Source: Candidatus Krumholzibacteriota bacterium (GTDB taxonomy: Bacteria > Krumholzibacteriota > Krumholzibacteriia > JAJRXK01). From it: a stretch of DNA of 64,000 nucleotides. Location of the stretch: contig CAVSGG010000008.1 of the NCBI GenBank assembly GCA_963727455.1, positions 64,001-128,000 of the forward strand, given 5' to 3'. The position numbers and the translations under genes were made by a program. The notes beneath the pieces are model-generated. The model was not told where the DNA came from. It did no database searches and worked only from the letters and a program-made list of their open reading frames with translations. Positions within the stretch are counted from its first letter, which is position 1, and each line of letters starts with the position of its first letter. Below are positions 43,306 through 62,608 of the stretch, one piece after another.

Positions 43306-43332
43306 GGAGGATGGCTGAATCCTCTCGGCGGC

Positions 43333-44327: not shown

Positions 44328-44403
44328 CGTTTCGTGATTGGAGCTCTGTTGGCGGTCGTTCGCGGTTTGGGTTCGTGCGGGGCCTGATCCGAAGAGCCGC
44401 GCT

Positions 44404-44432
44404 ACGTTACGCAGGCCCTCGCGGCTTGTCAA
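44404..44432 (-). promoter_or_regulatory. Sigma70-type promoter of the M23 gene
   Basis: TTGACA-17 nt-TAACGT. Confidence 0.5.
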
Positions 44433-44526
44433 GCCGGCCCCACCGGTCCAACGCGGATCAGCAAAAGATGTTCCAAGAAATTCCGCCCCACTCCCGGCGC
44501 TGGCCGGAGGCGCCCAATCGCGCCCC

Positions 44527-45393: not shown

Positions 45394-45539
45394 GACAAGG
45401 TTCCTGACCTGGGGTACGGATCTCAGCGACCGGCTCGCTGATCGGTTGACTTCACCCCCTCCTTCGACATGGACGGTGGCAAGCCCGCCCTACCGCGTGC
45501 GCTCTGATCGGCGAGATAGAGCGCAGCGGAAATTCACGA

Positions 45540-47111
45540 TCAAGGTTGCTCCGGAGCCTTTTTTGGCGAGGGCTTCGGATCGATTTCGAGATAACTGTTC
45601 ATGTCGCCACGGCGCACCAGAAGTCGTATGGGATTCCCATCCTTCGCTCCCTGGCGCGCCTGCAACTGGATCTGAAAGACTGCGTAGGAATCGTCGTTGC
45701 CCTCCAGCGGCACTCCGTCGAATTCCACGATCAGATCTCCCGGACGAAGTCTCGCCCGGTCGGCGGGACTGTTCTTCCACACTCGCACCACCACGATGCC
45801 TTCCTCGTCCGAAAGATCGAACTCCTCTTTGAGGGTCTGCACCTGCGGATCAGGGCTATCCAGGGGCGCCGCGGTGAATCCGAGCCAGGGCTCGGATTCG
45901 CTTGGATTGCCGTTCGCATCGTGGGAGGCGAGCGCCGCCGCTTCGTCGTATTCGTCCAGCACCACATCGAAGTCGAGCGGTTTGCCGTCGCGCATGACGC
46001 GCAGGTGAGCCTTCGACCCCACTTCGGATTCCGCGACGCGGAAACGCAGGGCCGGGATGTGCTCCACGGGTTCGCCGTTGTACTCAGTGAGAACGTCTCC
46101 CGCCTTCAGCCCCGCGCGCGCGCTCGGGGTGTCGGGAAGGACCTCGGTGATCACCACTCCCTGATCCTCCGGGATCGTCTGGCCCTGTTGGCGCAGGTTC
46201 TCGATCTCCGCCATGGTAATGCCGAGATAGCCGCGCCGTACGCGACCGAACTCACGGATCTGCTGATAGACGTAGCTGGTAAGGCGCGCGGGAATCGCGA
46301 AACCGATGCCCTGACCGGCCCGGTTGATGGCGGTGTTCACTCCGATCACGTCGCCGCTGATGTCCACCAAGGGCCCACCACTGTTGCCGGGATTGATCGC
46401 CGCATCGGTCTGCAGAAAGTTCTGGTAGCGCAGCATGTCCGCGCCCTGGATGGCCAGGTTGGCGCGACCCTTGGCGCTGATGACGCCGACGGTCAGGCTG
46501 CCTTCCAGCTCTCCCAGTGGATTCCCAATGGCGATGGCCCAATCACCCACGCGGATTCCGTCGCTGTCACCGAAGCGCAGATAGTGGAGCTCGTGACCGG
46601 GCTCGACCTTGATGACCGCCAGGTCCGTGGCAGGGTCCGCCCCGACCACTTTGGCCGTCAGGGGTTCGCTCACTCCGGCCAACTTGACGTGAATGTTGTC
46701 GGCGTTCTCGATGACGTGGTTGTTGGTGACGATGTATCCGTCGGATGAGACCACGAAACCCGAACCGGCACCGGGTACGTCGAAGTCCGGATGATGGAAA
46801 TCGCGCCCCTTGGGGAAGAACTCGCGGAACATCTCGCGCAAACTGCTATCGCTACTGGAGCTGTGCACGGTTCGAATGGCAACGACTGCAGGAGTCACGC
46901 GCTCGGCCACCTTGACGAAGGGCGAGTGCGGGGTTTGGGTCGCGGGAACTCCGCCCCCTTCCGCAGCAGTGGCAAGCTTGGTCGAGAAAAAGAGGGAACT
47001 CGCGCACAGTACGAGACTACAAGTGAGCAGCACAGCCAGACCCGCAAGTAACTCAAGCCGCTTGCGCGGAGAGGTCGGGGTATGTGAAAACTTGGCGTAT
47101 TCAGTTTGCAT
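45540..47111 (-). CDS. HtrA/DegQ serine protease with two PDZ domains
   Basis: GSGFVV, TNNHV, TDLAVIK, QTDAAINPGNSGGPL and PDZ motifs. Confidence 0.96.
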   Translation of the reverse strand: MQTEYAKFSHTPTSPRKRLELLAGLAVLLTCSLVLCASSLFFSTKLATAAEGGGVPATQTPHSPFVKVAERVTPAVVAIRTVHSSSSDSSLREMFREFFPKGRDFHHPDFDVPGAGSGFVVSSDGYIVTNNHVIENADNIHVKLAGVSEPLTAKVVGADPATDLAVIKVEPGHELHYLRFGDSDGIRVGDWAIAIGNPLGELEGSLTVGVISAKGRANLAIQGADMLRYQNFLQTDAAINPGNSGGPLVDISGDVIGVNTAINRAGQGIGFAIPARLTSYVYQQIREFGRVRRGYLGITMAEIENLRQQGQTIPEDQGVVITEVLPDTPSARAGLKAGDVLTEYNGEPVEHIPALRFRVAESEVGSKAHLRVMRDGKPLDFDVVLDEYDEAAALASHDANGNPSESEPWLGFTAAPLDSPDPQVQTLKEEFDLSDEEGIVVVRVWKNSPADRARLRPGDLIVEFDGVPLEGNDDSYAVFQIQLQARQGAKDGNPIRLLVRRGDMNSYLEIDPKPSPKKAPEQP

Positions 47112-48518: not shown

Positions 48519-49448
48519 TCAGGGCAGGAAGGCGAAGGACAGCGAGATGCGGTGGTCGTCCGAGAGATCGTTGCCGCTGTCCATGTAGGCGTAATCCACG
48601 CTCAAGCTTCCCGCGTGATAGCCCAGGCCCGCCGTGAGTCCGTAGGAATCGTAGTTGATGCGATAGCCGGCTCGCAGCGCGAAGCTCGAGTGGAGCCTCA
48701 TCTCGCCTCCCACGTGAATACGTCCATTGCCGTCATTGGGCAGCACGAGGTCGGTGGCCAGAGTGAGGTTTTCCGCCATCCCCTCCCCCTCGGTGTGCGG
48801 GGTGTAGCTCGCGCCCAGACGGGTGGTGAGGGGCAGATCGTAGGGTTCTTCCTTCAGGGTCATCTGTCCGCCGAGATTGGCGACGGCCGCGGCCAGGGTC
48901 AGACCGGGGATCTTGCTGCGGTGGCTGATCCCCAGATCCAGGGCCAGGCCCGCGGCGCTGTAGGCATCGATGCGCTCGTACAGGAACTTCCCTACCAGGC
49001 CCAGCGAGAAATCCTTGAATTGGTAGGCGTAGCCCAGGCCCACCGCGAGTTGGTAGGGCTGGAACTCTCCCTGGTACACGCCGATTCGATCCAGAGTGGT
49101 GCGTGGGATGGACTCACTATAGAAGCCACTGAAGATGAGACCGATGGCGCCTTTGGGGAGGCGATGACTCACAGCCGCAGCCTCCTGCCGGAAGAGGCTG
49201 AAATGTTCAACGTGCTGCAGGGTGAGGTTCGTTCCCTCAGCGAGCACGAGGTTGGCAGGGTTGTAGTACATGGCCGTCGCGCCGGTCGACTCGGCAACGC
49301 CCACGTCCCCCATCGCGCCGTTGCGGGCCCCGATACCGAACCTGAGGGAGAGAAATCCCGCGTCCCCGGGATTTCCCGCCCAGGCAGAGGGCGCGATCGC
49401 CAGGAAGACGAAAAGCGTCGCGATGGCGAAACAGGATGATTTGCGCAT
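48519..49448 (-). CDS. PorV-family outer-membrane protein
   Basis: Signal peptide; FLSLRFGIGARNGAMG..., AMYYNPANL, LALDLG, LRAGY and DYAY...HRISLSF. Confidence 0.85.
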   Translation of the reverse strand: MRKSSCFAIATLFVFLAIAPSAWAGNPGDAGFLSLRFGIGARNGAMGDVGVAESTGATAMYYNPANLVLAEGTNLTLQHVEHFSLFRQEAAAVSHRLPKGAIGLIFSGFYSESIPRTTLDRIGVYQGEFQPYQLAVGLGYAYQFKDFSLGLVGKFLYERIDAYSAAGLALDLGISHRSKIPGLTLAAAVANLGGQMTLKEEPYDLPLTTRLGASYTPHTEGEGMAENLTLATDLVLPNDGNGRIHVGGEMRLHSSFALRAGYRINYDSYGLTAGLGYHAGSLSVDYAYMDSGNDLSDDHRISLSFAFLP

Positions 49449-49540
49449 GAGGCTCCCCCAGGGATTCGAATCGCGCCCGCGGCGCGGATTGGAGAATTGA
49501 GTATACAGCTCCCACAGAGACCTTGGCAAAGACCAGCGTC

Positions 49541-52500
49541 TCATCGAACGATAGCAAAGGGTTTGAAGGCGACGCTGCCTTCGGTTTCCACCTTCGCCAC
49601 ATAGAGCCCGGCGACCAGACCATTCAGAGGGATCTCGAACTCCAATTGACCCGGCCCCTCGCCGCGGACTGTGCCCGTCTGGCGCACCACCTGTCCTTGC
49701 AAGTCGAAGACGGTCGAGCGCACCTGAGCCGAGCGGTGCAGCTGAATTCGCACATGCACGCTGGGACCGTCCGCCGGGTTGGGGTAAAGAACGAGGTCCT
49801 CGTCGGCGAAGGCCTCGCCTCCGCCAGGAATGGCACTCCCGCTCGAGTCGAGCGCTTGGTGTCCGGTTCCCCAGGCATCCGCCCCACCCTGGTTCCAGGG
49901 CGCAAAGCGCGTGCTGGGAATCGACAGACCATAGACGCGGATCTCCCCCACGCGATGGGTGAGTGGCAAGCGCTCCTCGAAGTCCGTTCCCGTGAGAGCG
50001 TCGAAGCCCGAGGCCAGGACGAGTTCGAGCTGCCCGTCTCCGTCGAGATCCGCCACTGCGGGCGAGCCGCAGGGTTCGCCGGGACCCTGGATGGGCCATC
50101 CTGGCAGACTCTCAGATTCCAGATTCACCGCGTGGACCCGTCCCACCCGATCGTGCCACAGCGCTTCCACTCTTCCGTCCCCGTCGAGATCCACGAGCAG
50201 CGGAGCGGCGGGAACGCTGCCCTCGATCGCTGCCGTGGAATAGCCGGGCTGGTAGGGGCCGCCGGTGAGCTGCGCGAGATTTCGGTCCAGAAGCCACAGT
50301 TCATCGCCCGCCACCACGGCCAACACGGGGTCGCCGTTCTCGCGCGCTGGCCCACCCACCAGGGCCGACCAAGGCGTGGGAAGGGTGCGGCCGTGGGCGG
50401 TCAGCGGGGTGCGAGGAACTCCCATGGTGTCGATCAAGGCCAAGCCCAGCCACATGTCACCCCGGAAGCGGTAGCTCAAGAGCTCCGCCGGTGTCTCCAG
50501 AACCAGTGGGACCGGCGGCGTGAGCGCCGCTTTGGCGAGCTTTGCGGGCCCGCGCAGGAGAATGCGGCCCGCGCGATTCTCAGGGATTCCCCCACCGACC
50601 GCGAGATAGAGTACTCCGGTGCCGCCATCGATCAGCACGCCGCGGCGCGCGGCTCCGTCGCAACGATCGGGGGAGATGCTGACGCTGGGTGCCGCCGTGC
50701 CGTCCCACTGCACGAGACTCGCGCCCACCGGATCCCCCTCCTGCAAGCCGCGGAAGATCATGACCAGATCGGCCTGTGACCGGGGTATGGCGTCGGCGAG
50801 AGTGCCGCTATGGGGAGCCAAGATGCAGGGGTGCGAGAGCTGCGTCGGCGCTCCATCCACCTGGGGTGCGGCCAAAAACAGCCCAAAGGTCGCCGGATTC
50901 CCATCGCCATCGCGCAGCTCGTTCCCCTGCGGGTCGAAAGCGAAGACCCCTTCTGCTGCGCTGAGGAAGATCTCCGGAGTACCATCGCCGTCGAGATCGC
51001 CGACGACGGGGGCGCCCAGCCAGTTCGGCGGACCATCAGCTCCGGTAGCGCGCGCGAGCACGGCGGGATTGTTGGGATCGGCTCCGGCTGACCAGGGTGA
51101 GAGATCGCCATGCAAGACCAACAGCGCGCCCTCATCGCCCGCCAGGAGGATCTCGGGTACTCCGTCGCCATCCAGGTCCGCGAGTCGCACATCGTCCAGC
51201 GGCCCATCCGCCGCAAGCTTGCGCTGCGCCTGAAGGGTGACGCCGGCCGCCTGCAGCTCAGGAGCGAAAGCGAGATCGAAGCCGAGTCGATCCCGATACA
51301 GAAAGCGGTTGGCATAGGGACAGTCGGGACCCGGATTGCACGCTTCGATCCCCAGCTGCACGCTGTCGATTCCGCTGATGGAGAACCCGATCGAGGCGCC
51401 ATCATAGCTCAAACTGCTGGGCAAGGTGTCATCCGCGAAGCGCGTGCCGAAGAGTTGGTCTCCGATGAGCACACCCTCTCCGCGGAAGCAGTCGCGATCC
51501 CATCCCAAGAGGAAACGCGAGGCCTTGAGGGTATCGAGATCCTGGACACCGTCCGCTTCTTCGAGGTCGACGCCCTTGCGCTTGGGATCGGCATTGATCG
51601 TGTTCGATCCGGCGTTCAACGACTCCTGGATGACGCGCTCGTCGATGTGCCACACGTAGAGGCCGTTGCCGCGCCCCGGCCCGCGCAGTGAGCCATCCGA
51701 GTCGTTCACGGGGAATTCGCTCATGAAGAAATCCCACTCCGCCCCAAGCGTGCTCTCCCAGGTGTCAGTCGCGGGGTCGAAGGTCGATGTGGGCTCTCCG
51801 TCTCCACTACTGCTGTCCGCGTCGTAAAAATCCGGCACCCGGTTCCCGTTGAGGTCGTCGAAGCTGAAAGTGAAAGTCCCGTCAGGATCCTGAAGACGGT
51901 ATTCCAGCAGGAAGTACTCGCGGTCGGTGATGGGAACTTTGACCAGGAGGGTGTCCCCCACTCCCGTCTCGATGGGCGGCAACTCGACCCGCGTGTCGGA
52001 ATCGATCGTCACGGCATCCACCCAGCCCATGAGCATGCGATTCATGGCACATGGCTCGGCGGGAACGATGCCGAGTCCGGTGAAAAGCCCGTAACCCATC
52101 AGGCCGTAGTTCCCGATCCCCTGACTGTCGGGACGTCCTTCTGGAGTGAAGTCCGCCAGACTGAGCATTCCCAATCGCAGCCCCACCTCAAAGCAGTAGA
52201 CGCCTCGCATTCCGAAAAAACCATTGAGGCCGAGCGAGGCCACCGCGTCTTGCGTCTCGGTTTCAGGCAGAATGAGGACGTGACGGATCAGAACTCCATC
52301 CTGCGTGCTGATCCCCGGCTCGGTGAGAACGGTGTCCGCCATGGCCTGCTCGAAATCGCGGCGATCCAGGTAGTTCGAAAATAGCTGCTGAGGGCTGTCG
52401 TTGTTGATGTCGGTCTCTCGTCCGGCGCCGGCGTGGATGAGGACCAGCGTATCGAAGTCGTTGAAGTCCACTTCGGGGTCGATGGCCTCCACCACCTGCT

Positions 52501-53083
52501 TGGCCATCTCCACCAGACGATCGTTGTCCTCGCGGTCCGCGCCGTAGTAGCCCATGGACTCGGGTAGATTCACCAGAGTCGACAGTGCCTGCCACTGCAG
52601 AGTGAACTTGCCGCGCGAGACGGTGCTGAAGTAGTCCGCGGTCTTGCGCATCTGCAGGTCGAAGTAAGTGGAATCGTGCGCGGCGAATTCGTAGATCGGA
52701 TTGCCCTGCTGGTCGGTGATCGCCCGGCCCAGATCGTCGTAGAGGAAGTTGCCCTCTCTGGCGGGAGTTGGCCAAGCGGCGAACTGCGTACGGTCGCGAC
52801 CCCAGAGCAAACTGTCGGCGAAGTCACACCCCACGACCAGCATCCGCAGAGTGTCGGGAGCCTTGTGCGAGCGCAGCGCTTCCATCTGGCTCGCCTTGGC
52901 TCCACTGACCCGCATTCGGGCCGACGAGCGCGCCAGCAACTGACGCGTTGCATCCTTGGCGGAAAGAGCGCGGCTCTGAAACCAGGGCGCTGTTTCAGCG
53001 CTTCTCGCCGCACCGGCAAGGAGGTGGATTGATAAGAGGGTGCAAACCAGCAGGGCAGCCCAGGACCCACGGCTCGAGCTCAT
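49541..53083 (-). CDS. M6/immune-inhibitor-A-like (catalytically degenerate) domain + FG-GAP repeats + T9SS-like C-terminal domain
   Basis: IHAGAGRE, GV.CFEVGLRLGM (where HExGH is expected), GLMGYG, GWV, EYFLLEYR, GLYVWHIDE and GVDLEEADG; DLDGDG repeats; YPNP...VFDLQG...GLYVAKV. Confidence 0.82.
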   Translation of the reverse strand: MSSSRGSWAALLVCTLLSIHLLAGAARSAETAPWFQSRALSAKDATRQLLARSSARMRVSGAKASQMEALRSHKAPDTLRMLVVGCDFADSLLWGRDRTQFAAWPTPAREGNFLYDDLGRAITDQQGNPIYEFAAHDSTYFDLQMRKTADYFSTVSRGKFTLQWQALSTLVNLPESMGYYGADREDNDRLVEMAKQVVEAIDPEVDFNDFDTLVLIHAGAGRETDINNDSPQQLFSNYLDRRDFEQAMADTVLTEPGISTQDGVLIRHVLILPETETQDAVASLGLNGFFGMRGVYCFEVGLRLGMLSLADFTPEGRPDSQGIGNYGLMGYGLFTGLGIVPAEPCAMNRMLMGWVDAVTIDSDTRVELPPIETGVGDTLLVKVPITDREYFLLEYRLQDPDGTFTFSFDDLNGNRVPDFYDADSSSGDGEPTSTFDPATDTWESTLGAEWDFFMSEFPVNDSDGSLRGPGRGNGLYVWHIDERVIQESLNAGSNTINADPKRKGVDLEEADGVQDLDTLKASRFLLGWDRDCFRGEGVLIGDQLFGTRFADDTLPSSLSYDGASIGFSISGIDSVQLGIEACNPGPDCPYANRFLYRDRLGFDLAFAPELQAAGVTLQAQRKLAADGPLDDVRLADLDGDGVPEILLAGDEGALLVLHGDLSPWSAGADPNNPAVLARATGADGPPNWLGAPVVGDLDGDGTPEIFLSAAEGVFAFDPQGNELRDGDGNPATFGLFLAAPQVDGAPTQLSHPCILAPHSGTLADAIPRSQADLVMIFRGLQEGDPVGASLVQWDGTAAPSVSISPDRCDGAARRGVLIDGGTGVLYLAVGGGIPENRAGRILLRGPAKLAKAALTPPVPLVLETPAELLSYRFRGDMWLGLALIDTMGVPRTPLTAHGRTLPTPWSALVGGPARENGDPVLAVVAGDELWLLDRNLAQLTGGPYQPGYSTAAIEGSVPAAPLLVDLDGDGRVEALWHDRVGRVHAVNLESESLPGWPIQGPGEPCGSPAVADLDGDGQLELVLASGFDALTGTDFEERLPLTHRVGEIRVYGLSIPSTRFAPWNQGGADAWGTGHQALDSSGSAIPGGGEAFADEDLVLYPNPADGPSVHVRIQLHRSAQVRSTVFDLQGQVVRQTGTVRGEGPGQLEFEIPLNGLVAGLYVAKVETEGSVAFKPFAIVR

Positions 53084-53123
53084 GCGCGTTCGTTCCTAGA
53101 GAGAGAATAAGGTAGCGGAGTAT

Positions 53124-53162
53124 AAAAAGGAGACGGCGGTAGGGTCAACCGCCGCCCCTTTT
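53124..53162. terminator. Bidirectional intrinsic terminator-like hairpin overlapping a sigma70-like promoter
   Basis: AAAAAGGAGACGGCGGT-agggtca-ACCGCCGCCCCTTTT; minus-strand TTGACC(53143-53148)-18-TATACT(53119-53124). Confidence 0.6.
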
Positions 53163-53388
53163 CACCACATCCACCGCACGAAACCGTGGGAGAGGAGCGT
53201 CGGGTCCTGCATCGTCGCCCCTGATCGACAAATCCGGCCTTTGGCCCCTCTCCCAAGAGGGTCCCATGGAGTCCGCTGATTCCCCCCTCCCGCTTACGGC
53301 TGCCAACCATCAATGGGGAAGGAACTTGCGGCCCGCTCGCACCTTTCAGGCAGAGTGGGAATCCCTCACTTCAATCGTTCGCGAGTTG

Positions 53389-55230
53389 CTATTCGCGACC
53401 TCCTCTGCCTCTGGAATGGGAGCTCGAACCGGATCTGCCGGAGCGCGCAGGGGCGGACGGACGCGGAGCCGAGGAATTCCGCGGAGCCGGTGCCACTCGC
53501 CGACTCGAGGCGCCCTGCGAAGGTCTCCGCGGGGCTGCGGAGTACCCTTGCCTCGAGGAGGATTGAGAGGGCGCGCGACGCGCTTGCGCTCCTTGGCTCC
53601 GCGAACCGCCGGAACGCGGTGCCCGATACGAGGAAGCGTGAGGAGCCCCTTTCGAATCCCGGCTACCAGACCTTTGCCGGGTGTCCCTGGACTTCACACG
53701 GGGCGCTGCCTCGCGCCTCTTGGGTTGCGAATTGCGCGCTGGCGGAGAGACACGCTGTCTCTCTCCCTGCTGTTGAGGAGCGGAGGGCCTACGTAGGTTC
53801 CTGTCGCTACCCTGGCGCTGAGGCGCGCTTTGCTTCGGCGCGGGAGATACCCGCGTTGCGGGCGCGTTGCGTACGACCGGCCTGGTCCAGCGCCGACCAT
53901 GACTCGTACCGGTGGCGCCTGACTCGCGCCCTCCACTCCGCTCGCGCACCGTTGGCGACACTGTGGTAGTTCCGCTGGGATTCAAGCTGCGCACGGTACG
54001 GGCCGGCCTTCCACGAGTGGGCCGTACTCCGGACCGTTCGCCGGTAGTCCGTGAGCTCGAGGGAACCAGCTTGCGATCGCCAGGCGCCCGCACCGGCATC
54101 TCGTTCCGCGTGAGCTGGTCGCGACTCACCCGCGAGGGATGCTTGGAATCCGTGGACCCGCGCCGCGCAATGCTGGGGGGAACGCGGGTGAGATCGCGTC
54201 CCCGCACCGGCGAGGGCTCGCGGCTATGACGGATGTCGTAGATCGGCCTCTGCTTCACCACTCCGCGGTCATACAAGGTTACGTAGTCCCCTCGATAGCG
54301 CGGGTGATTCCGCCAGCGATACACCGGATAGCTGCGCACATAGCAGTTCCAGCTGGGCCACGAGTAGTAGATCGGGTAGTAGCTGTAGTAGTACGGCCGG
54401 TAGAGCCAGCGGTCCCAGTAGTAGTACGGCGCGTCACAGTACAGAGGGTAGTAGCCGAAGCTCGCGTACCAGTGCGTGTACCAGCCCCAGTCGGCATAGA
54501 TGTTCACCTGGGTGCAGGTACTCGTGTAGGGGGCGTACTTGGGATCGTTGCCCGTGTGACACTGCGTGCAAGTATAGCGCGGATACTCCACTTTCTGATC
54601 CACGTAGATGTGGGTCCAGTCGGTGACCAGCCAGTCCACGTCTTCATCGAGGCCCGTGATGGCGTAGTTGATGTCGTTCACCGCCAGGAACGGATCTCCC
54701 GACACCCGGTGCGCGTACTCGCCCGTCTCGTCCGGACCAAAGCGGAAGTCGATCGCCAGCTGACGCAAATCGAAGGGGTACTGACTGGCGATGGCCTCCA
54801 CGTATTCCACTCCGCGAGACTGCGAAACCCACAACCCCTGATCGGAGGAGCGTCCGGGAATGGAGTAGGTATGCCCGCCGAACACGAAGCCGTCGTCATA
54901 GCGGCTCTGCGGCCAGAGGATCTCGGTGTAGCCGTCGGCATCGATGTAGTAGAGCACCACATAGGCGTCGTCGTTGGTGCGGAAGTACAACTGGAGCGCT
55001 TCGCCGCGCGCAAAAACCGCGTCGTCGTCCTTGTCGTGCCACACTCTGACCCGCAGCTCACGCGAAGCGTAGCGGACCTCGTCCGCCGAAGAGTCGCCGG
55101 CCGGCTGTTGATCCTCCAGCGAGAGAACCGTGGTCGGGGTGACCGTGGTAGCGACCGAACTCGAGGGCCAAGCCCCCAGAACGATCAGAGCAAGAAACAG
55201 GGGAAGTATGGTTTGAATCCGGGTGCTCAT
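53389..55230 (-). CDS. Exported DUF4384-domain protein with CxxCH, Tyr/Trp-rich segment and long Arg/Ser/Pro-rich tail
   Basis: Signal peptide; GE.LQLYFRTNDDAYVVLYYIDADG...ILWP...G.EYVEAIAS; CTQCH; low-complexity C-terminus. Confidence 0.8.
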   Translation of the reverse strand: MSTRIQTILPLFLALIVLGAWPSSSVATTVTPTTVLSLEDQQPAGDSSADEVRYASRELRVRVWHDKDDDAVFARGEALQLYFRTNDDAYVVLYYIDADGYTEILWPQSRYDDGFVFGGHTYSIPGRSSDQGLWVSQSRGVEYVEAIASQYPFDLRQLAIDFRFGPDETGEYAHRVSGDPFLAVNDINYAITGLDEDVDWLVTDWTHIYVDQKVEYPRYTCTQCHTGNDPKYAPYTSTCTQVNIYADWGWYTHWYASFGYYPLYCDAPYYYWDRWLYRPYYYSYYPIYYSWPSWNCYVRSYPVYRWRNHPRYRGDYVTLYDRGVVKQRPIYDIRHSREPSPVRGRDLTRVPPSIARRGSTDSKHPSRVSRDQLTRNEMPVRAPGDRKLVPSSSRTTGERSGVRPTRGRPARTVRSLNPSGTTTVSPTVRERSGGRESGATGTSHGRRWTRPVVRNAPATRVSPAPKQSAPQRQGSDRNLRRPSAPQQQGERQRVSPPARNSQPKRREAAPRVKSRDTRQRSGSRDSKGAPHASSYRAPRSGGSRSQGAQARRAPSQSSSRQGYSAAPRRPSQGASSRRVAPAPRNSSAPRPSAPARSGRSGSSSHSRGRGGRE

Positions 55231-56165
55231 GACGAGCCCTCCTTCCCGGTGCCCCGCGGCGGTAGCGCCTCACGGGCCTGCTTGAGCTCGGGCAAGCCGT
55301 CTACCGGCTGGTAGCCCCACATCAAGCTAATCGTGCCGTTGTTCGGCGAGATGTTCACCACGTAAACCTTCGCGTAGTTGAGCTGCTCACCGTCTACAAT
55401 CTCAAGAAAATAACTGTGTCCCTCGATCGCTTCCATCATCCCGGTCTGCGACCAGCCGAACTCGGGGGCATAGCTGGCCACGTCGAAATCGACGTTCCCG
55501 TAATCCTGCATCCTCACCCAGGGAATCTGAGCCGTGAAGACGGGAACGCCGCTCACGAAATCGAAGCTGAGATCGCTAAGAAGGTCGGCGGGATAGCGTC
55601 GCGTTTCCTCACTGAAATCGAAACCAGCGCGCGAGGAATCCATGCTGGCCGCGCTCAGGGTCACCGTGCCTTCCGGCCGCGGGGTGTCCACCACGTAGTC
55701 GGTAGAAAGCGCGCTCTCGTTGCCCGCATCATCGAAGGCGGTGATCGCGTAATAGTAGTCGAAACCGTTGTCGACGGTGTGATCCTCGAAGATCAGATAG
55801 GGTCGTCCACCGCTGGTGTCGGGATCATAACTGACCAAGTTGGGAATGTCCGGGTACGGCGTCCCCACCTCGAGTAGCTTCTCCCAGTGGATGGGGTTGC
55901 CGTTGCCATCGGCTTCGGTGGTCGAATAGACACGGTAGCCGGCCAGGTCCGGCTCGCGGTTAGCGTTCCAGATGACCCAGATCACCGAATCGCCGGTGAT
56001 TGAGCTCACCCCATTGGGAATGGCCGGCGGTGTGACGTCCACGATCTCGTCGTTCTCGTCACAGCCGGCAGAGAGGAGAGTCAGAAACGCCAGCGAGAGG
56101 ACGAGGAGCACACGGAAATCCCTCAAGGAAGTGCTCTTGGTCTGTGCTTCAAGTGCTGCGTTCAT
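55227..56165 (-). CDS. Lipoprotein with FN3-like domain
   Basis: LSAG-C lipobox; PPAIPNGV...GD..I...W..N.E.DLAGYRVY and YYYAITAFDDAGNESALS. AAGGAG RBS; ATGA overlap with the downstream gene. Confidence 0.85.
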   Translation of the reverse strand: MNAALEAQTKSTSLRDFRVLLVLSLAFLTLLSAGCDENDEIVDVTPPAIPNGVSSITGDSVIWVIWNANREPDLAGYRVYSTTEADGNGNPIHWEKLLEVGTPYPDIPNLVSYDPDTSGGRPYLIFEDHTVDNGFDYYYAITAFDDAGNESALSTDYVVDTPRPEGTVTLSAASMDSSRAGFDFSEETRRYPADLLSDLSFDFVSGVPVFTAQIPWVRMQDYGNVDFDVASYAPEFGWSQTGMMEAIEGHSYFLEIVDGEQLNYAKVYVVNISPNNGTISLMWGYQPVDGLPELKQAREALPPRGTGKEGSS

Positions 56166-56222
56166 GGCTCTCTCCTTCAGCGGAAGGCCTCGTCCCCTCC
56201 CTTGTCCCCACCCTCTCTCTTC

Positions 56223-56237
56223 GCAGCCGCCATGCCA
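56223..56237 (-). promoter_or_regulatory. Sigma54 promoter of the FN3 lipoprotein-DUF4384 operon
   Basis: Minus-strand TGGCATGGCGGCTGC with GG-N10-GC spacing, ~57 nt upstream of the ATG. An IHF-like AT-rich tract lies at ~56290-56302. Confidence 0.65.
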
Positions 56238-56474
56238 CCGCCTGGCACGGGGGCTTCCGTGAGCGGAGCGTCTCTTCCAAGATATTGACTTCTAATGGCT
56301 TAGACTCGTAGATCCGGAAGATCTCAGAAATTAGAGCAGGCAGATTGGCTTCTCCGAGAAGCGGAAGTTGTCGCCATCCAGATATAAAAACGTCCCATGG
56401 AGGGGACACTGCCAAGCCCCTGCTCCACGGCATCCTCGACTTCCTCAGCGCTGGAAAAATGGCGTTGGAACGCA

Positions 56475-56503
56475 CGAGAGCCGCCCCTGAGGGACGGCTC
56501 TCG
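56475..56503. terminator. Strong GC hairpin, possible 3' end of the intergenic transcript
   Basis: CGAGAGCCG(C)CCC-TGA-GGG(A)CGGCTCTCG; no immediately adjacent U-tract. Confidence 0.5.
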
Positions 56504-56852
56504 CAACCATAAGAGCGTGAGTGGTGCACCAGATCCCCTTGAGCGGCCGCTCCAAGATCTCGCCAGTCCTGGATGCCGGGGGTGTCTCGTGCTGGATCTC
56601 TCCTTTTACCTCTCTCACTGCATCCCATGGGATGTTTCGGAGGACGGTGCGATAACGCTGTCTTCCTAGCTTCCGCCGAGATCCTCAGCCCGACCCCACC
56701 TCGTGCTGATGAATCGACGAACCGAATTGATGGAAAACAACCTCTTTCAGCCGGTTGACGGAGAGGAGCGTTCCCACCCCGTCCTCCGATAAACTCAGGC
56801 CCAGAAGGCCAACTGGACGACCGGACCACGTTTGCCTAGTGACTCCAGCCGC
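56475..56852 (-). ncRNA. Putative sigma54-dependent structured RNA (unassigned family)
   Basis: Bounded by a sigma54 promoter and a terminal hairpin. Contains an 11-bp perfect long-range stem (56637-56647 with 56779-56789) and further helices; no convincing long ORF. Confidence 0.4.
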
Positions 56853-56863
56853 ACATACCCATT

Positions 56864-56878
56864 GCACCCTCCATGCCA
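56864..56878 (-). promoter_or_regulatory. Sigma54 promoter immediately downstream of the TPR activator gene
   Basis: Minus-strand TGGCATGGAGGGTGC(AA) with GG-N10-GC spacing. Confidence 0.7.
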
Positions 56879-56916
56879 TGGGGACGGCGTCCGGATAGAA
56901 AGTGTATCTTGTTATA

Positions 56917-56929
56917 AATCAGTAAGTTA
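56917..56929 (+). promoter_or_regulatory. IHF binding site
   Basis: AATCAGTAAGTTA matches WATCAR-N4-TTR exactly, ~40-50 bp upstream of the -24 box, in an AT-rich tract. Confidence 0.65.
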
Positions 56930-57079
56930 TAAACGGAAGTCCGCACCCTTGCCGGGGAGATTTTCGCGTCCGGATCCAGTTAGAAAGTTCCTTGATAGGC
57001 GCGGAAGGGGGAATTTTCGTAAGTACCAAAAAACAGAGAACTTATTCGCTATAAAAAGAATTGATGAAGAATGTCCGCA

Positions 57080-60000
57080 CTAGTTAGGGAGTTTGAGACC
57101 ATAGCGCTTGATCTTCTGCAGGATGGTGGGATAGCTGATCTTCAGCCTTCGGGCTGCCTCGCTGCGATTCCAAGCGCAGCTCTTCAGCGCTCGCTCCAGG
57201 AGGACTTTCTCGAACTGGGCGACCTCGCTCTTGAGCGGCTGAATCCGATCAAGCGCCTCCTCAGCGTCGACGGCTCCCTCGGGGTCATTTCCACCGCGGC
57301 AGAGGCTGGGCAGATGCCGGGCCTGCAGACGCTCGTCGCCGGCACTCAAGATGACCGCCCGCCGAATCACCTTCTCCAGCTCGCGGACGTTGCCCGGCCA
57401 AGAGTAGGCGCGCAAACCACTGGTAAAGGCGCGCGTCATCTGAGGGATCGGCCGCCCCAGTTCACTCGAGACGCGGTCGAGGTAGTGGCGGGCCAAGAGG
57501 AGGATGTCGTCGGCGCGCTCGCGGAGCGGCGGAACGTCGATGGGAAAATCCAGCAGGCGGTAGTACAGATCCTCCAGGAACAGGTCCTTGCGCACCATTT
57601 CTTTCAGATCGCGCATGCTCGCACTGAGTACGCGGACGTCCACGGTTTGACTCTCCCCACCACCCACCGGTCTCACTTCCTTGCTGTCCAAGAAGTGCAA
57701 GAGCTTCGCCTGCATGGGCAGGCTCATCTTGCCGATCTCGTCCAGGAAGAGGGTGCCTCCATCGGCGCTAGGAATGAGCCCCTTGCGAGTTCGATCCGCG
57801 CCGGTAAACGCACCCTTCACGTGGCCGAATAACTCGCTCTCGAGCAGGCTCTCGGGAATGGCGGCGCAGTTTAACGATACGAAGCGCTGGTTTCCGCGCG
57901 GGCTGAAGCGGTGCACCGCGTAGGCCAACAGACCCTTCCCGGTTCCGGTCTCGCCGGTGAAAAGCACGGAGTATGGAGTGGGAGCGACTTTCGCGCAGAG
58001 ACGCAGGACCTCCACCATCGCATCGCTCTCGGTGATGATGTTCTCGAAGGCCTCTTCCAAGAGGAACGCGCGATTCCCGCTGTCGCTGCGCCCGCCACGC
58101 GCCAAATCGAAGATCGGGGCGCGCAGAAGTTCCACGTAGCTCGCCGCCACCGCCAGGGCCTCGTTGTTGAATCCGCGCGGAGCACCCTTGCGCGGCGCGG
58201 TGTCGAAGTAGATCAGAGCGCGCAAGGAACCGGAACTTCCCAAGGGCAGCGCCGCGGCGGCGCCGATCTCGCGAAGCTCTTCATCCTGAAGCACGTTCCA
58301 CGTTTGGTCGGCTTGGGGATTCGTCCAGACCCTGGGGCCGGTTGCCTCGTCCAGGAGCGCGAAGACGTGACGCGCGATGGTAGCGGCGCGTCCCCGCGCC
58401 AGGTGGTGCGCCGACAGAATGCGAGGGGCCTCGCTTGCCTCCTGCACCGCCAGGAAGGCCCGATCAGCCTGTAGACGATCCGCGAGGGCCAGTAGCATGC
58501 TGCGCAGATTCCGCTCGGCATCCGGCTTTTCGGTATCCAGGAGTTCGGGAAGATCGGCCAGCGCCTGGTAGCTCGAGGAGATCGTTTCCGCGTCCTGCGA
58601 AAGTGCTTCCTCGATTTCCGCTCGCAGAGCCTGTACCTCGCCCATGAGACTTCCGTGATTCCCCGTGCAGGAGAGGCGCTCGAGTTCGTACAGAGCCAGC
58701 AGGGCTTCGTCGTATTCGCCCAAGTTCAGTTCCACGCGGGCAATATCCAGTTGCACCTGGCAGGGCGAATATTCCCCGTCCTCGTCGGGAATCTCGGACA
58801 CCTCGCGCAGGCGTGTGCGCGCCAGAAGCAACGATTCGCGTTCGGGCTGAGCCATGTGCAGATGCACTAGATCCCTCAGGATTCGCCGCATCTGGACCGG
58901 CAAGCGAAACTCGCTGACCCGATTCAGTGCCGACTCCAAGGCGTCCCGGGAGGCCTGGTACTTTCCCCGCGAGGCCAGAGCCAATCCGATCACGCGCTCG
59001 AAGAAAGGCAGCTCGAAACGCTCGCCGCAGGCCTCGGCGATGCGAACCCCCTGGTTGGCCAGAGCAAGCGCAGCTCCCTCGTCTCCCCGGCGCAGGGCCA
59101 ACTCGGCACGGCGCCGGAGAACTTCGGCCTGGATGTCACTGGCCGGGCCCATGCTCTCGGCCCGTTTCTCGGCCAGACGGTAATTGAGTTCAGCCTCTTC
59201 GAAGCGTTCCTGAGCGGCCATGAGGTCCCCCAAGAACTCGTCCGCGAGCGCGAGATCGCGGCCGGTCTGGCGACGCTCGGCCAGCACCCGGGCCTCCAGC
59301 AAATTCTGCTCGGCCTCCGAGTACCGCCCATCCTCGATGAGAATCTGTCCTTTGAGTAGTCTCAGCCGGGTGAGCCGGCTCTGATCGCCCAGATTGCGAC
59401 CCAGCTCCAGCCCTCGTTCCACTTGAGCCATGGCCTCGGCTCGCCGTCCCATCTTCCGGTAGAGCACCGCCATGCTGTTGTGAAGCACTGCGAGCTCGTG
59501 GGAATGGCCGCGGTCGCGCACGATGGTCTCGGCTTTGGAGAAGAGCTGGAGTGCGCTGGACCAACGGCATTCGTTCTTGGCCAGAGTCGCCAGGTTGATC
59601 AGGGCTTGCGCCTGACCCAGCGGGAGATCCACGCGCCGGAAGGTCGCCAGGGCATCCTGAAAGAACTCGTCGGCCTTTTCGGTGCGTCCGAGGCGGGTGG
59701 CACAGTTCCCCAGAATCATCTGGGCGTTCCCCACCTCGCGGTGTTGGTCGCTCGTGGCGAGGTCCCGGAATCCCTCCATCGCTAGGGTCTGTGCCTTGCG
59801 GTACTTGCCCTGTCGGAAGTGGACGAGAGCCCTGCGGACTCTCAACACGGCGTGAGCCAGCGCAGCGCCATTGGGAAGCAGGTTTTCGGCTTGGTTCAGC
59901 TCACGGGAGGCGTCAGAGGGAAGTCCCTGTTGAAGCAAACAGTCGCCCAGCTTGCGGTGGAGCCGGGCCAGGGTCTCCGCCGGCACGCTCCCCGCCTCAG

Positions 60001-60172
60001 CGCCACTACGCAGCGCGGAACGGTAGTACTCCATGGCCGAAGAGTACGCCGCGCCGTCATAGTGCAAGTCACCCACTTGCTCCGTACGCAACAGAGTGGG
60101 GTTCTCAGCGCTGTTGCTTGGACTTGAGGAGGAGGGCCTGAAGCCCTCGTCTCCCTCTCGAAACTCCTGCAT
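57080..60172 (-). CDS. TPR-GAF-sigma54 AAA+-Fis HTH enhancer-binding protein
   Basis: ~530 aa of TPR-like helical repeats, then a GAF-like segment, GETGTGK, LNCAAIPESLLESELFGH.KGAFTGA, TLFLDEIG, DLYYRL, WPGNVRELE and WNRSEAARRLKIS. ATG start at 60172 (the ORF track extends it to 60199). Confidence 0.93.
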   Translation of the reverse strand: MQEFREGDEGFRPSSSSPSNSAENPTLLRTEQVGDLHYDGAAYSSAMEYYRSALRSGAEAGSVPAETLARLHRKLGDCLLQQGLPSDASRELNQAENLLPNGAALAHAVLRVRRALVHFRQGKYRKAQTLAMEGFRDLATSDQHREVGNAQMILGNCATRLGRTEKADEFFQDALATFRRVDLPLGQAQALINLATLAKNECRWSSALQLFSKAETIVRDRGHSHELAVLHNSMAVLYRKMGRRAEAMAQVERGLELGRNLGDQSRLTRLRLLKGQILIEDGRYSEAEQNLLEARVLAERRQTGRDLALADEFLGDLMAAQERFEEAELNYRLAEKRAESMGPASDIQAEVLRRRAELALRRGDEGAALALANQGVRIAEACGERFELPFFERVIGLALASRGKYQASRDALESALNRVSEFRLPVQMRRILRDLVHLHMAQPERESLLLARTRLREVSEIPDEDGEYSPCQVQLDIARVELNLGEYDEALLALYELERLSCTGNHGSLMGEVQALRAEIEEALSQDAETISSSYQALADLPELLDTEKPDAERNLRSMLLALADRLQADRAFLAVQEASEAPRILSAHHLARGRAATIARHVFALLDEATGPRVWTNPQADQTWNVLQDEELREIGAAAALPLGSSGSLRALIYFDTAPRKGAPRGFNNEALAVAASYVELLRAPIFDLARGGRSDSGNRAFLLEEAFENIITESDAMVEVLRLCAKVAPTPYSVLFTGETGTGKGLLAYAVHRFSPRGNQRFVSLNCAAIPESLLESELFGHVKGAFTGADRTRKGLIPSADGGTLFLDEIGKMSLPMQAKLLHFLDSKEVRPVGGGESQTVDVRVLSASMRDLKEMVRKDLFLEDLYYRLLDFPIDVPPLRERADDILLLARHYLDRVSSELGRPIPQMTRAFTSGLRAYSWPGNVRELEKVIRRAVILSAGDERLQARHLPSLCRGGNDPEGAVDAEEALDRIQPLKSEVAQFEKVLLERALKSCAWNRSEAARRLKISYPTILQKIKRYGLKLPN

Positions 60173-60250
60173 GGCATCCCTTGGGCGAGAAGGGTTCAAC
60201 TAGAGATACCGCTTTGGGAAAAAAGCGAGCTTCCTCGACTTCGATTTGTG

Positions 60251-60604
60251 TCAGCGAGCCTCCACGATTCGAAGCGTGCTTCCTTGGATCCATTTCACGA
60301 GTCGCTGCCAGAGACTCTTCATCAACGAAGAATCGTCCGAGCTGGAACTCGTCGGAGCCCAGACTGACAGGTTTCCCCCCGTCAACTCATCGGGATCTCC
60401 ATTTTGCGTGGTCGGAGTATCCTGGATGAAAATTCCACCATGGCTTCCGGTCGATCCCCCTGGGCTCGGCGCGGGGTTGTATACGCTGTTGTCGCAATCG
60501 ACTCGCAACGAAATTTCCGCGGCAGCGGCCGGCATCACCATCCACGTCATCGTGCAGATCAAAAGAGCGATTCCAATCGTGAGGCGCTTGCTCTTGCTCA
60601 TCAT
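60251..60604 (-). CDS. Small exported protein / candidate signalling-peptide precursor
   Basis: GAGGAG RBS; Sec signal MMSKSKRLTIGIALLICTMTWMVMPAAAA; disordered middle with GDPDE; C-terminal amphipathic helix LMKSLWQRLVKWIQG. Confidence 0.75.
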   Translation of the reverse strand: MMSKSKRLTIGIALLICTMTWMVMPAAAAEISLRVDCDNSVYNPAPSPGGSTGSHGGIFIQDTPTTQNGDPDELTGGNLSVWAPTSSSSDDSSLMKSLWQRLVKWIQGSTLRIVEAR

Positions 60605-60669: not shown

Positions 60670-60740
60670 CCTAAATCTGTGTTGTGGATCATACCACAAA
60701 TCTAGGATACACAATACGTAGGAGCAACGCACGGGGTCAA
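60670..60740 (-). promoter_or_regulatory. Sigma70-like promoter and inverted-repeat operator upstream of the small exported protein
   Basis: TTGACC-18-TATTGT (60740-60711); CCTAAATCTGTG-N13-CACAAATCTAGG (10/12 inverted repeat), with a nested TTGTGG-N6-CCACAA. Confidence 0.5.
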
Positions 60741-60758: not shown

Positions 60759-62123
60759 TCAGCTTGAGGTCCTCAAGCCGTAGCGCTGGATCTTCTTGTA
60801 CAAATTGCTGCGCTGCATTTGCAGTTCCTCGGCGGTTCGGCTCACGTTGTAGCCGAATTCCCGTAGCTTCCCCTGCAGGAAGATGGCCTCGCTGGCCGCC
60901 TTGAAATCGTTGAAAGTGGGGCTCGAGAAGACGTCCTCGTGCTCCCGCTTACTCCCACCCTCGCCGGCCAGGACGCTCAAGTCCTCCTCGTGAATCGTCT
61001 CGTCCGGCGCGACGATCGCCAACCGTTCCGCCAGATTTCTCAATTCACGGACATTCCCGCGCCAGGGCTGCCGTTTGAGCAGTGCCATGACCCCCCGATC
61101 GACTCCCTTGACCTTCTGCCCCATCTCCAGTGCGGCGCTCCGGAGGAAGTGAAGGAAGAGACTTTCGATGTCCTCAGGTCGTTCCCGCAAGGGGGGCAAG
61201 TGGATCTGGATGACGTTGAGGCGGTAAAAGAGGTCCTGCCGGAAGCCGGTGCTTTCATCGCTCAGCTCACGGTTCGTGGCCGAGATTACCCGCACGTCGA
61301 CGTGGATGAGATCCTGTCCCCCGACTCTCTCGAAGGTGGAGGTTTCCAGAGCCCGCAAGACCTTGGCCTGTGCGGCCTGGCTCATGTCGCCGATCTCGTC
61401 CAGGAAGAGAGTCCCCTGGTCCGCTCGTTCGAACTTTCCCAGTCGCCGCCGTTCGGCCCCGGTGAACGCGCCCCTTTCGTGTCCGAAGAGCTCGCTCTCG
61501 ATGAGGTCATCGGGAATCGCGGCGCAGTTCAGCTCCACGAAGGGGCCGCTGGCGCGCGCCGAGCGGGCGTGGATGGCACGGGCCAGAAGTTCTTTGCCGG
61601 TTCCGTTCTCCCCGGTGATGAGAACCCTCGCGGGTGTCGGGGCGACTTTCTCCAGCAACTCCTTCACGTGATGAATCGAAGGGCCGTCGCCGATGATCTC
61701 GCCGCCGCGGGCGGAGGATTCGGCAAGCTCCCGATTGGCTCGCTTCAGTCGCGAGTGCTCCTGGGCCTTCTGCACGCGGACCTTCAGAGCCTCACGCTTG
61801 AACGGCTTTTCCAGGAAGTCGTAGGCGCCCCGTCGGATGGCTTCCACTGCGTTCGCCACTGCCTCGTGCGCAGAGATCACCACCACCGGCACTTCGAGCC
61901 CCTCGTTCTGCATCACCTTCATGACTTCGAAGCCGTCCATGCCGGGCATCTTGACGTCCAGCAATAGGACTTCACAGACACCTTTGCGCAATTCCCGGAG
62001 AGCGTGCGGACCGTCCTCGGCTTCGGCCACTTCAAAACCGTCGTACTCCAGAACTTGCCGCACCATCGCGCGCAGTCCTGAATCGTCGTCCGCAATGAGG
62101 ATTCGGCCCTTCTTGGAATCCAC
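60759..62123 (-). CDS. NtrC/NtrX-family sigma54-dependent response regulator
   Basis: ILIADDD, LLDVKMPGMDG, FLEKPF, GENGTGKE, GAFTGA, WRGNVRELRN and NVSRTAEEL HTH. Confidence 0.95.
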   Translation of the reverse strand: MDSKKGRILIADDDSGLRAMVRQVLEYDGFEVAEAEDGPHALRELRKGVCEVLLLDVKMPGMDGFEVMKVMQNEGLEVPVVVISAHEAVANAVEAIRRGAYDFLEKPFKREALKVRVQKAQEHSRLKRANRELAESSARGGEIIGDGPSIHHVKELLEKVAPTPARVLITGENGTGKELLARAIHARSARASGPFVELNCAAIPDDLIESELFGHERGAFTGAERRRLGKFERADQGTLFLDEIGDMSQAAQAKVLRALETSTFERVGGQDLIHVDVRVISATNRELSDESTGFRQDLFYRLNVIQIHLPPLRERPEDIESLFLHFLRSAALEMGQKVKGVDRGVMALLKRQPWRGNVRELRNLAERLAIVAPDETIHEEDLSVLAGEGGSKREHEDVFSSPTFNDFKAASEAIFLQGKLREFGYNVSRTAEELQMQRSNLYKKIQRYGLRTSS

Positions 62124-62138: not shown

Positions 62139-62528
62139 TCAGAGAAGAAAATCCTCGAGTTCCTGAGCTTGCGGACCGGCGGGGCCGCGAGCCGCGAGAC
62201 TCGGGTTCTCGCTCAAGTTCAGCCAGCGCTGCAAGAAACTCTGCAACTCGAACTCAACCGTTCCAGCGCCGGCAGGCGCCCAGCGGTACACCCGCTGTCT
62301 GCCCTTGGTCTCCACGGCCAAGAGTCCGCAACGGCGGAGGATCCCCAGATGATGGGAGACCCGCGGTTGCGCAGCACCGAGTTGTCGGCAGATCTCAGAA
62401 ACCGACGCCGGCTCCTCGGCCACGAAGCTCAAGATTCGCAGGCGGAGATCGTCGCCGACTGCGGAGAGCAGCGCTGCCAAAGCGGCCTCGCCGCGCGTCT
62501 TGGTTCCTTCTATACTCTTCTTGGCCAT
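62139..62528 (-). CDS. ArsR/SmtB-family transcriptional regulator
   Basis: D..RLRIL, SVSEI...LG..QPRVSHHL..LR..GLL and GRQRVY. Confidence 0.88.
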   Translation of the reverse strand: MAKKSIEGTKTRGEAALAALLSAVGDDLRLRILSFVAEEPASVSEICRQLGAAQPRVSHHLGILRRCGLLAVETKGRQRVYRWAPAGAGTVEFELQSFLQRWLNLSENPSLAARGPAGPQAQELEDFLL

Positions 62529-62608
62529 CTCGTTCCGCGCTTCTACTACGAGTTTCGTAGCAACTTGATCCCTAGTTCCACTCAGTGTCAAGTGATCGCG
62601 AGCCCAGA

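Follow-up and report, generated by a model that had tools for sequence, protein, structure and literature searches.

A conserved cassette of Krumholzibacteriota joins a small, predicted exported protein, a TPR-bearing sigma54 activator and a structured RNA

Introduction

What is the gene of a small, apparently exported protein doing directly in front of the gene of a transcription activator whose sensor is predicted to stay in the cytoplasm? This question is raised by a locus in a 64,000-nucleotide (nt) stretch of DNA from a Candidatus Krumholzibacteriota bacterium (hereafter the window; G000:C8:64001-128000, G000 being the window's own genome), where a 117-amino-acid (aa) open reading frame (ORF) is followed on the same strand by the gene of a sigma54 activator with tetratricopeptide repeats (TPRs). 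An earlier note on this DNA had read the two genes as an RRNPP-like system, in which a peptide processed from an exported precursor is sensed by the TPR domain. Here we report that the small ORF, the TPR activator and a structured RNA, which that note had overlooked, almost certainly make up one conserved unit, a regulatory cassette found across the phylum, and we weigh direct binding between the small protein and the TPR sensor against its rivals. Krumholzibacteriota stand directly under Bacteria in the NCBI taxonomy, and the literature retrieved under the phylum name consists, among the matches listed (15 of 68), of ecology and metabolism titles.

Results

The TPR region of the activator had one clear ortholog in each of 61 sampled relatives, and an activator ortholog was found in 145 of 151 genomes across Krumholzibacteriota (116 of the 117 high-quality ones). 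When the small protein of the window was used as a single query, it retrieved genus relatives only (5 of 61 genomes at E<=1e-5, the remaining matches being noise), so the small ORFs of the other genomes were detected by position: the stretch upstream of the 61 orthologs was scanned for a same-strand ORF with a hydrophobic N-terminus. Such a signal-peptide ORF, 91-119 aa long and ending 15-119 nt before the activator start, was present in 60 of the 61 genomes, which is the outcome that the earlier note had asked for when it proposed to look for a small secreted ORF beside homologous activators. The sole exception was G001 (locus L012, G001:C9:876000-890000), where the small ORF is readable across two frame changes; the RlmN and DUF4384 genes, within 10 kb, are frame-broken too, so that assembly indel errors are likely, rather than pseudogenes. 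The pair also holds together where its surroundings change. At eight loci of family f3 the small ORF stays with the TPR activator and the NtrC-type regulator gene that otherwise lies upstream was not found in the ~1.1-1.5 kb examined, and in G048 (family f6) the two genes remain adjacent and the downstream operon is absent. These results argue that the small ORF and the activator genes are, with good probability, functionally coupled. The parts of the cassette lie in the window as follows, in the direction of transcription.

60711-60740 (-): sigma70-type promoter of the small ORF, TTGACC-N18-TATTGT
60254-60604 (-): small ORF, predicted exported protein of 117 aa
60386-60400 (-): GDPDE, core of the GDxDDxxxG motif
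60219-60237 (-): short hairpin and T6 run after the small ORF stop, a candidate weak terminator- or attenuator-like element read from the sequence
60178-60194 (-): hairpin CCCTT-CTCGCCC-AAGGG over the ribosome-binding site (RBS) of the activator
57083-60172 (-): TPR activator, with ~12 TPR hairpins, an alpha/beta (GAF- or PAS-like) domain, an AAA+ domain with GAFTGA and a Fis-type helix-turn-helix (HTH)
After the activator gene: spacer of ~915 nt in the window
56981-57066 (-): two inverted repeats of the TATCAA-N5-TTGATA type, the candidate enhancer UAS1 (upstream activating sequence 1), upstream of P1
56863-56878 (-): sigma54 promoter P1, TGGCATGGAGGGTGCA
56470-56851 (-): candidate sigma54-dependent structured RNA, ~380 nt, ends predicted
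56391-56408 (-): palindrome of the TGTCC-N8-GGACA type, the candidate enhancer UAS2, upstream of P2
56222-56237 (-): sigma54 promoter P2, TGGCATGGCGGCTGCG, 57 nt before the next gene

The small ORF starts with an ATG at 60604, stops at 60251-60253 and is preceded, 8 nt 5′ of its start, by the Shine-Dalgarno (SD) sequence GAGGAG, in accordance with the 117-aa ORF with a strong RBS that had been described. The other features attributed to it were found as well: by our own heuristic the N-terminus (MMSKSKRLTIGIALLICTMTWMVMPAAAAE) has the K/R n-region, hydrophobic core and AxA site of a signal peptide, GDPDE sits exactly where it had been placed, and the protein ends in a Trp-rich amphipathic helix, SLWQRLVKWIQ, behind a middle part rich in Gly, Ser, Pro and Asp. 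Its mature part is a disordered chain of ~85 aa. The identical 117-aa product is present in public collections without a name; the small ORF had no match in Pfam or in NCBIfam, including the C-terminal sorting-signal models of the latter, and no paralog was found in the window's own genome.

Analysis of the 60 aligned small proteins revealed that the family has kept very little of its sequence apart from one short motif. Mean column identity was 17%, and the invariant columns were the initiator Met and a G-D pair within the consensus GDxDDxxxG (60 of 60), which is the most conserved portion of the ORF. Within the genus the small protein changes much faster than its neighbours: its identity was 31-33%, the activator reaching 61-62% and the product of the NtrC-type gene 77-78%. 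A search with the family profile returned 275 representatives at E<=1e-3 among 1.84 billion; the length was 93-138 aa in 149 of the best 150 metagenomic representatives, and a strict pattern recognised the motif in 146 of these 149, the other three reading SGDDD. Conservation of a GDPD-like core, proposed earlier as a check, is therefore found both in the sampled genomes and in metagenomes. All 60 loci encode a hydrophobic N-terminal segment, in 54 of them with n-region, h-region and AxA site together, and a lipobox-like Cys occurs in one. The mature part is acidic (median net charge -6) and rich in Gly, Asp, Ser and Pro. Relative to the motif, which lies ~45 residues before the stop, the aromatic hydrophobic helix is C-terminal in 42 loci, N-terminal in 10 and weak in eight. 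Both elements seem to be needed, in free order, and the ability of the helix to stand on either side of the motif fits a docking function at the protein level. The C-terminal sequence is conserved within subfamilies only, being moved or weak in 18 of the 60; large subfamilies carry Trp-rich C-terminal motifs such as WW[KN][FY]M[IV]W[IM]R-stop, and several family members end in aromatic residues.

A sorting tail of the PEP-CTERM or LPXTG-like kind was considered for this C-terminus and rejected, because its hydrophobic stretch lacks the length of a membrane span, carries too much charge for one and stands 15-30 residues away from the motif. The nearest clusters in the ESM Atlas are proteins of ~110 aa with weak scores (0.81-0.83), whose few labelled members belong to Candidatus Eiseniibacteriota; this could mean that the family or the cassette is not confined to Krumholzibacteriota, or that taxonomies differ in their labels.

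The activator gene begins with an ATG at 60172, 78 nt after the stop of the small ORF, and encodes 1030 aa. Pfam matches, with positions counted on a 1039-aa form starting at a TTG, comprised TPR_12/TPR_MalT (~50-350), Sigma54_activat (PF00158, 721-887, E 1e-63), AAA_lid_14 and HTH_8 (993-1033); the GAFTGA motif is intact in the translation and no receiver domain was found by Pfam, so the co-oriented TPR, AAA+ and Fis HTH protein of ~1030 aa is as it had been reported. With its AAA+ domain carrying GAFTGA, its C-terminal Fis-type HTH, an rpoN gene on the window's contig and nearby -24/-12 promoters with upstream repeats, the protein has the features of a bacterial enhancer-binding protein. An AlphaFold2 (AF2) model of residues 1-700, built from 49 of the 60 orthologs (the 11 partial ones were left out), reached a mean predicted local distance difference test score (pLDDT) of 87.6 and a predicted template modelling score of 0.71. 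It places 24 TPR-type helices at 25-501, followed by a long helix and then by an alpha/beta domain at 550-693 with five strands of three or more residues. This last domain had been called GAF-like; it gave no Pfam match even at E<=10 and no sequence match in the Protein Data Bank (PDB), so that a GAF-like fold is plausible from the model and unconfirmed by sequence. The nearest solved TPR sequences were those of the peptide binders kinesin light chain, LGN and Rap3T (E 7e-5 to 3e-3), and conserved Asn, Lys, Asp, Glu and Arg residues occupy helix-A positions 4-6 and 12 of successive repeats. We take the TPR solenoid, ~480 aa long, as the probable sensor of an activator that is predicted to be cytoplasmic. 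Sigma54 activators sense through receiver, GAF, PAS, V4R and similar domains; a TPR sensor would be a new sensor type for them.

The spacer that follows the activator gene measures 859-1087 nt in the 16 genomes compared, and in 15 of them it contains two -24/-12 sites, P1 and P2, at fixed places, the sixteenth having weaker versions. The two downstream sigma54 promoters named by the earlier note as likely outputs are thus conserved. Matches to the sigma54 consensus with at most two mismatches were not enriched in the window (22 compared with 23.4 expected), so P1 and P2 are supported by their position across genomes and not by count. Upstream of P1, repeats of the TATCAA-N5-TTGATA type numbered 31 in the 16 genomes against 5.8 expected, with at least one site in all 16 and at least two in 10, and the TGTCC-N8-GGACA palindrome was found 170-204 nt upstream of P2 in 10 of the 16 genomes against 0.3 expected. 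A pair of promoters, each with its own kind of repeat, would fit the two sigma54 activators of the locus, the TPR activator and the NtrC-type regulator. Motifs resembling UAS1 or UAS2 were not enriched elsewhere in the window. The sigma54 site near 14605, which had been listed as a further output, does exist with one mismatch to the consensus (GGGCACGGTCATTGCT, 14619-14604), and an ORF of 2850 aa starts 36 nt after it (ORF and site together, 6016-14619 (-)); no enhancer-like repeat of either type was found near it and, given the lack of enrichment across the window, nothing ties it to the cassette.

No conserved ORF was found between P1 and P2, where blocks of sequence are conserved instead. 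Nine sequences of families f1 and f2 were aligned (six of the 15 extracted were left out as too divergent to align), and RNAalifold predicted 71 pairs in them. Pairing was possible in 92.1% of the cells, compared with 37-50% when the partners were slid by 1-3 columns, compensatory changes occurred at 38 pairs, compared with 9-15 in the slid controls, and none of 500 shuffles reached the observed value on any of five measures. The predicted fold has a closing hairpin at 56502-56476 and two other hairpins whose loops are invariant, GGUGGGG (56700-56694) and GGCGAG (56564-56559). Rfam (4227 covariance models) gave no match over the window at the gathering score and none at E<=1 over 56100-57150. 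A covariance model of a 157-nt core had exactly one match per genome in 57 of the 151 genomes (eight of nine in f1, 48 of 60 in f2 and none in the other families, for which the model is probably too narrow). In 54 of the 57 the match stood on the contig and strand of the activator, 3.3-3.5 kb past the point at which the N-terminal match of the activator starts; two matches lay on another contig, probably because of contig breaks, and one in a genome without an activator match. In G048, which lacks the operon, the activator is still followed by a sigma54 site, by related loop motifs and by a U-tract terminator. These comparisons suggest that P1 probably drives a structured RNA of ~380 nt as the direct output of the cassette, and that this RNA represents a new, covariation-supported family with a defined promoter and neighbourhood.

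Two contigs from a salt-marsh metatranscriptome, the only sizeable ones on the 4.7-kb stretch, bear on expression: one of 300 nt (depth 9.5) covers 56544-56837, within the candidate RNA, with 23 differences and is thus a ~92% identical relative, and one of 151 nt (depth 2.1) is identical to 60201-60351, the 3′ part of the small ORF. They come without strand or ends, DNA carry-over is possible and the uncovered parts are uninformative, so that they are only a hint. The same 4.7-kb stretch is also present in DNA runs from wetlands and salt marsh.

If the TPR domain is the sensor, the small protein is a candidate for what it senses. When the TPR domain was co-folded with the mature form of the small protein, the median score was 0.32 (runs 0.46, 0.32 and 0.26), the best control reaching 0.01; the runs agreed in at least 42% of their contacts, and the pLDDT of the partner did not fall below 40. 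In the calibration, 58 of 80 solved complexes and two of 110 mismatched pairs attained the mark; at scores up to 0.60 only seven of the 80 solved complexes did so, together with both passing mismatches. The co-fold, which the earlier note had suggested as a check, therefore gives weak support to direct binding. One short motif kept invariant in an otherwise disordered chain usually marks a site that docks onto a folded partner, which counts for contact, as does a TPR sensor without any other candidate ligand. The conserved polar and charged residues of helix A and the peptide binders among the nearest solved TPR sequences point the same way. Several observations weigh on the other side. By the calibration, scores of this size mislead more often than they are correct, except where the guess was likely beforehand, and the co-fold returned no interface. 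Since the mature protein is predicted to lie in the periplasm and the TPR domain in the cytoplasm, contact would need re-import or binding before export; three genes of the OppA/DppA family are present, which makes peptide import possible. The motif is conserved throughout the phylum, unlike the diversifying peptides of quorum-sensing pherotypes, and being rich in Asp and Pro it might instead have a role at the ribosome or in metal binding. Groove residues conserved in this way and a PDB similarity of this kind are common to TPR proteins at large, and the signal peptide itself is a call of our heuristic, with the full set of features in 54 of the 60 loci. Taking both sides together, we hold tentatively, and with somewhat less than even confidence, that the small protein is a direct binding partner of the TPR sensor.

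The genes that surround the pair in the window are as follows.

62139-62591 (-): ArsR-type regulator
60759-62123 (-): NtrC-type response regulator with receiver, sigma54 AAA+ domain and Fis-type HTH (Pfam Response_reg, Sigma54_activat, AAA_lid_14, HTH_8)
48519-56165 (-): probable P2 operon, from Pfam, NCBIfam and synteny
55227-56165 (-): lipoprotein without a family, P2 operon
53389-55230 (-): DUF4384 protein with a long Arg/Ser-rich tail, P2 operon
49541-53083 (-): M6-like inactive metalloprotease of 1180 aa with FG-GAP repeats, sorted by the type IX secretion system (T9SS), P2 operon
Within 48519-50099 (-): PorV/PorQ-family barrel, P2 operon

Among 12 diverse genomes, an NtrC-type ortholog was found on the small-ORF side of the TPR activator within the fetched stretch in all 12, and the P2 operon was syntenic in 11, or in eight as regards the DUF4384 protein; LpxH is also among the conserved envelope-related neighbours. 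The P2 operon is adjoined by an envelope-maintenance cluster (41932-47111 (-)) that holds a DegP/HtrA-type protease with two PDZ domains, a sigma70-family factor (regions 1.2-4), an M23 peptidase and an AmiC-type amidase with AMIN and LysM domains.

This arrangement offers an explanation in which the small protein never touches the TPR domain: in the manner of QseG, it would act in the periplasm or membrane on a kinase or envelope component encoded elsewhere and signal through the adjoining NtrC-type regulator. For such a modulator topology poses no difficulty, every sampled family except f3 has an orphan NtrC-type gene directly upstream, and the two sigma54 promoters with their different enhancer-like repeats suit two activators. 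It also has a close architectural precedent in the glmY-qseE-qseG-qseF locus, as described in PMC6075780 and PMC8745638. On the other hand, Pfam, NCBIfam and synteny revealed no kinase gene in the conserved block, and at the eight f3 loci the small ORF is kept with the TPR activator, no NtrC-type gene having been found in the upstream stretch examined. A disordered ~85-aa chain with one short motif is not a folded accessory domain, and the TPR sensor would be left without a ligand. We consider this explanation a live alternative, though a rather doubtful one.

The way in which the two genes are expressed bears on a further possibility. The sigma70-type promoter of the small ORF is kept in the five genomes of the genus, and 53 of the 60 loci have a TTGACn-N16-18-TAnnnT site 77-181 nt in front of the small ORF; no conserved sigma54 promoter precedes the small ORF, weak matches being found at varying places in five of the 60. 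A GGAG/GAGG SD sequence stands before the small ORF in 57 loci, compared with 22 for the activator. The sequences strongly indicate a transcript that runs from a sigma70-type promoter through a strongly translated small ORF and reads on into a weakly translated activator. GC-rich hairpins follow the stop of the small ORF in many loci, and within the genus a 26-nt leader stretch that includes the hairpin at the activator RBS is invariant. In the window's genome the SD sequence of the activator had a probability of being unpaired of 0.00, compared with 0.31 in shuffles, and it is fully paired in G000 and G003; across the phylum the median was 0.34 in native and in shuffled sequences, and six of the 60 loci stood out.

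In families f1-f3 the weak RBS of the activator lies within a hairpin whose loop carries CUCGCC; a CTCGCC box was present in 26 of the 60 activator leaders against 2.1 expected, and a CCCCAC box in five of the 60 (f6). The C-rich box stands just 5′ of the activator RBS (60183-60189 (-) in the window). CUCGCC and CCCCAC are the complements of the two invariant loops of the RNA, which makes loop-loop feedback conceivable. In a comparison that used 11 of 13 paired genomes, duplexes between activator leader and candidate RNA predicted with RNAduplex were no better than with shuffles (z -2.6 to +1.0).

An upstream ORF with an N-terminal export signal in 60 of 60 loci, in front of a gene whose SD sequence is fully paired in two genomes, could be an export-monitoring leader in the manner of SecM, VemP or MifM. 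Translation would pause unless the translocon pulls on the signal peptide, which would tune translation of the activator, and the peptide would have no function in trans. Asp/Pro-rich runs are prone to stalling. The Trp-rich motifs at the extreme C-terminus recall the K-Y-x-I-W arrest motif of PMC10987492. By the same source, however, the first criterion of the class is a sec or yidC gene downstream, which is not the case here, and in the published KYxIW case the stall falls 7-11 residues past the motif, whereas our ORF ends two residues past the Trp. SD sequestration does not extend to the phylum, 10 of the 60 loci lack the C-terminal motif or have it elsewhere and another eight have it in weak form, and the invariant motif in mid-chain and the movable helix would be left unexplained. 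We regard a leader of this kind as improbable. Slightly less probable again is that the small protein is a plain envelope or surface component, for instance one that goes with the T9SS-linked operon and is co-transcribed for dosage without a signalling role: the conserved neighbourhood is indeed envelope-related (lipoprotein, DUF4384 protein, T9SS cargo, PorV-like barrel, LpxH), and several family members end in aromatic residues like outer-membrane-targeted proteins, but the small ORF is on the transcript of the regulator and not in the sigma54-driven operon, and it stays beside the activator in G048, where that operon is absent.

Discussion

In the mechanism that we propose, the TPR sensor would receive its input from the small protein as a partner. 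The motif or the helix of the latter would dock in the conserved TPR groove, the candidate segments being GDPDELTGGNLSV or the C-terminal helix, and the docking species could be a fragment returned from the periplasm or the precursor prior to export. Docking would switch the ATPase-driven sigma54 activation of the structured RNA. The second promoter, P2, probably drives the envelope and T9SS-linked operon, independently of this proposal. Extended to its full length, this becomes a signal-to-RNA circuit universal in the phylum, an idea that we put forward as possible and doubtful: the exported mini-protein would report on the envelope, export capacity or cell density, the returned acidic peptide or the unexported precursor would dock on the TPR sensor, and the ~380-nt RNA would act through its G-rich loops on C-rich boxes of mRNAs, including the leader of the activator, which would close a feedback loop. 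If this were true, it would be the first peptide-sensing sigma54 activator together with a new RNA family.

The interest of the locus extends beyond that mechanism. A true ligand-receptor pair would mean that peptide sensing of the RRNPP type also exists in diderms and serves sigma54 control. Under any mechanism, the cassette belongs to the core of an uncultured phylum and gives an entry to the regulation of its envelope and T9SS-linked surface proteins. Escherichia coli has sigma54, and all parts of the cassette are testable there. A literature search covering titles and the openings of abstracts returned no TPR-sensing sigma54 activator paired with a dedicated exported mini-protein.

How, then, does the cassette compare with known systems? 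The RRNPP pairs (Rap-Phr, NprR-NprX, PlcR-PapR, PrgX, AimR-AimP) place the gene of a small Sec-type precursor beside that of a cytoplasmic TPR regulator, as the cassette does with a predicted Sec-type precursor, and Rap3T is among the nearest solved TPR sequences. The criteria given in PMC10075063 are a Sec-secreted propeptide of 10-100 aa and a receptor of 250-500 aa with the TPRs C-terminal to the DNA-binding part, and clusters with an N-terminal TPR region were discarded there. Measured against these criteria, the receptor is 1030 aa long, its TPRs are N-terminal (25-501) and its HTH C-terminal, and the host is a diderm candidate phylum and not a Firmicute; the precursor, at 91-119 aa, is a borderline case, with two of the 60 under 100 aa. 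Membership in the RRNPP family is not upheld on receptor size, domain order and host. In addition, the output of the receptor is a sigma54 AAA+ motor instead of an HTH or a phosphatase, and the motif is conserved phylum-wide and lies in mid-chain.

LuxO-Qrr of Vibrio resembles the cassette in that the direct output of a sigma54 activator is a small RNA gene adjoining the activator gene. LuxO is a phosphorelay receiver protein without TPRs, however, the Qrr RNAs are ~100 nt long and Hfq-dependent, and the signals are small molecules.

SecM, VemP, MifM and the newer arrest peptides share with our small ORF the upstream position, the N-terminal export signal, a variable spacer, a C-terminal Trp-rich element and co-transcription, as described in PMC10987492. 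They differ in that the gene downstream encodes a Sec or YidC component and not a transcription activator; here, moreover, the most conserved element is in mid-chain and no general SD-sequestering structure was found.

In the glmY-qseE-qseG-qseF locus of Enterobacteriaceae, according to PMC6075780 and PMC8745638, a kinase is under the periplasmic control of an exported lipoprotein, and the adjacent small RNA is driven by a sigma54 regulator. The likeness comprises a sigma54 activator and a small exported protein (predicted as such here) in one unit, an adjacent sigma54-dependent small RNA, upstream activating sequences and a tie to envelope homeostasis. In contrast, the block of the cassette has no kinase gene, the small protein is not a lipoprotein (a lipobox-like Cys in one of 60), the activator beside the RNA would sense through TPRs and not through a receiver, and the RNA has no Rfam match.

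All in all, the cassette appears to resemble an RRNPP pair only in outline and to share with QseF-GlmY and LuxO-Qrr the layout of an activator beside a small RNA. It looks like an undescribed regulatory system related to known kinds, with a new RNA family attached.

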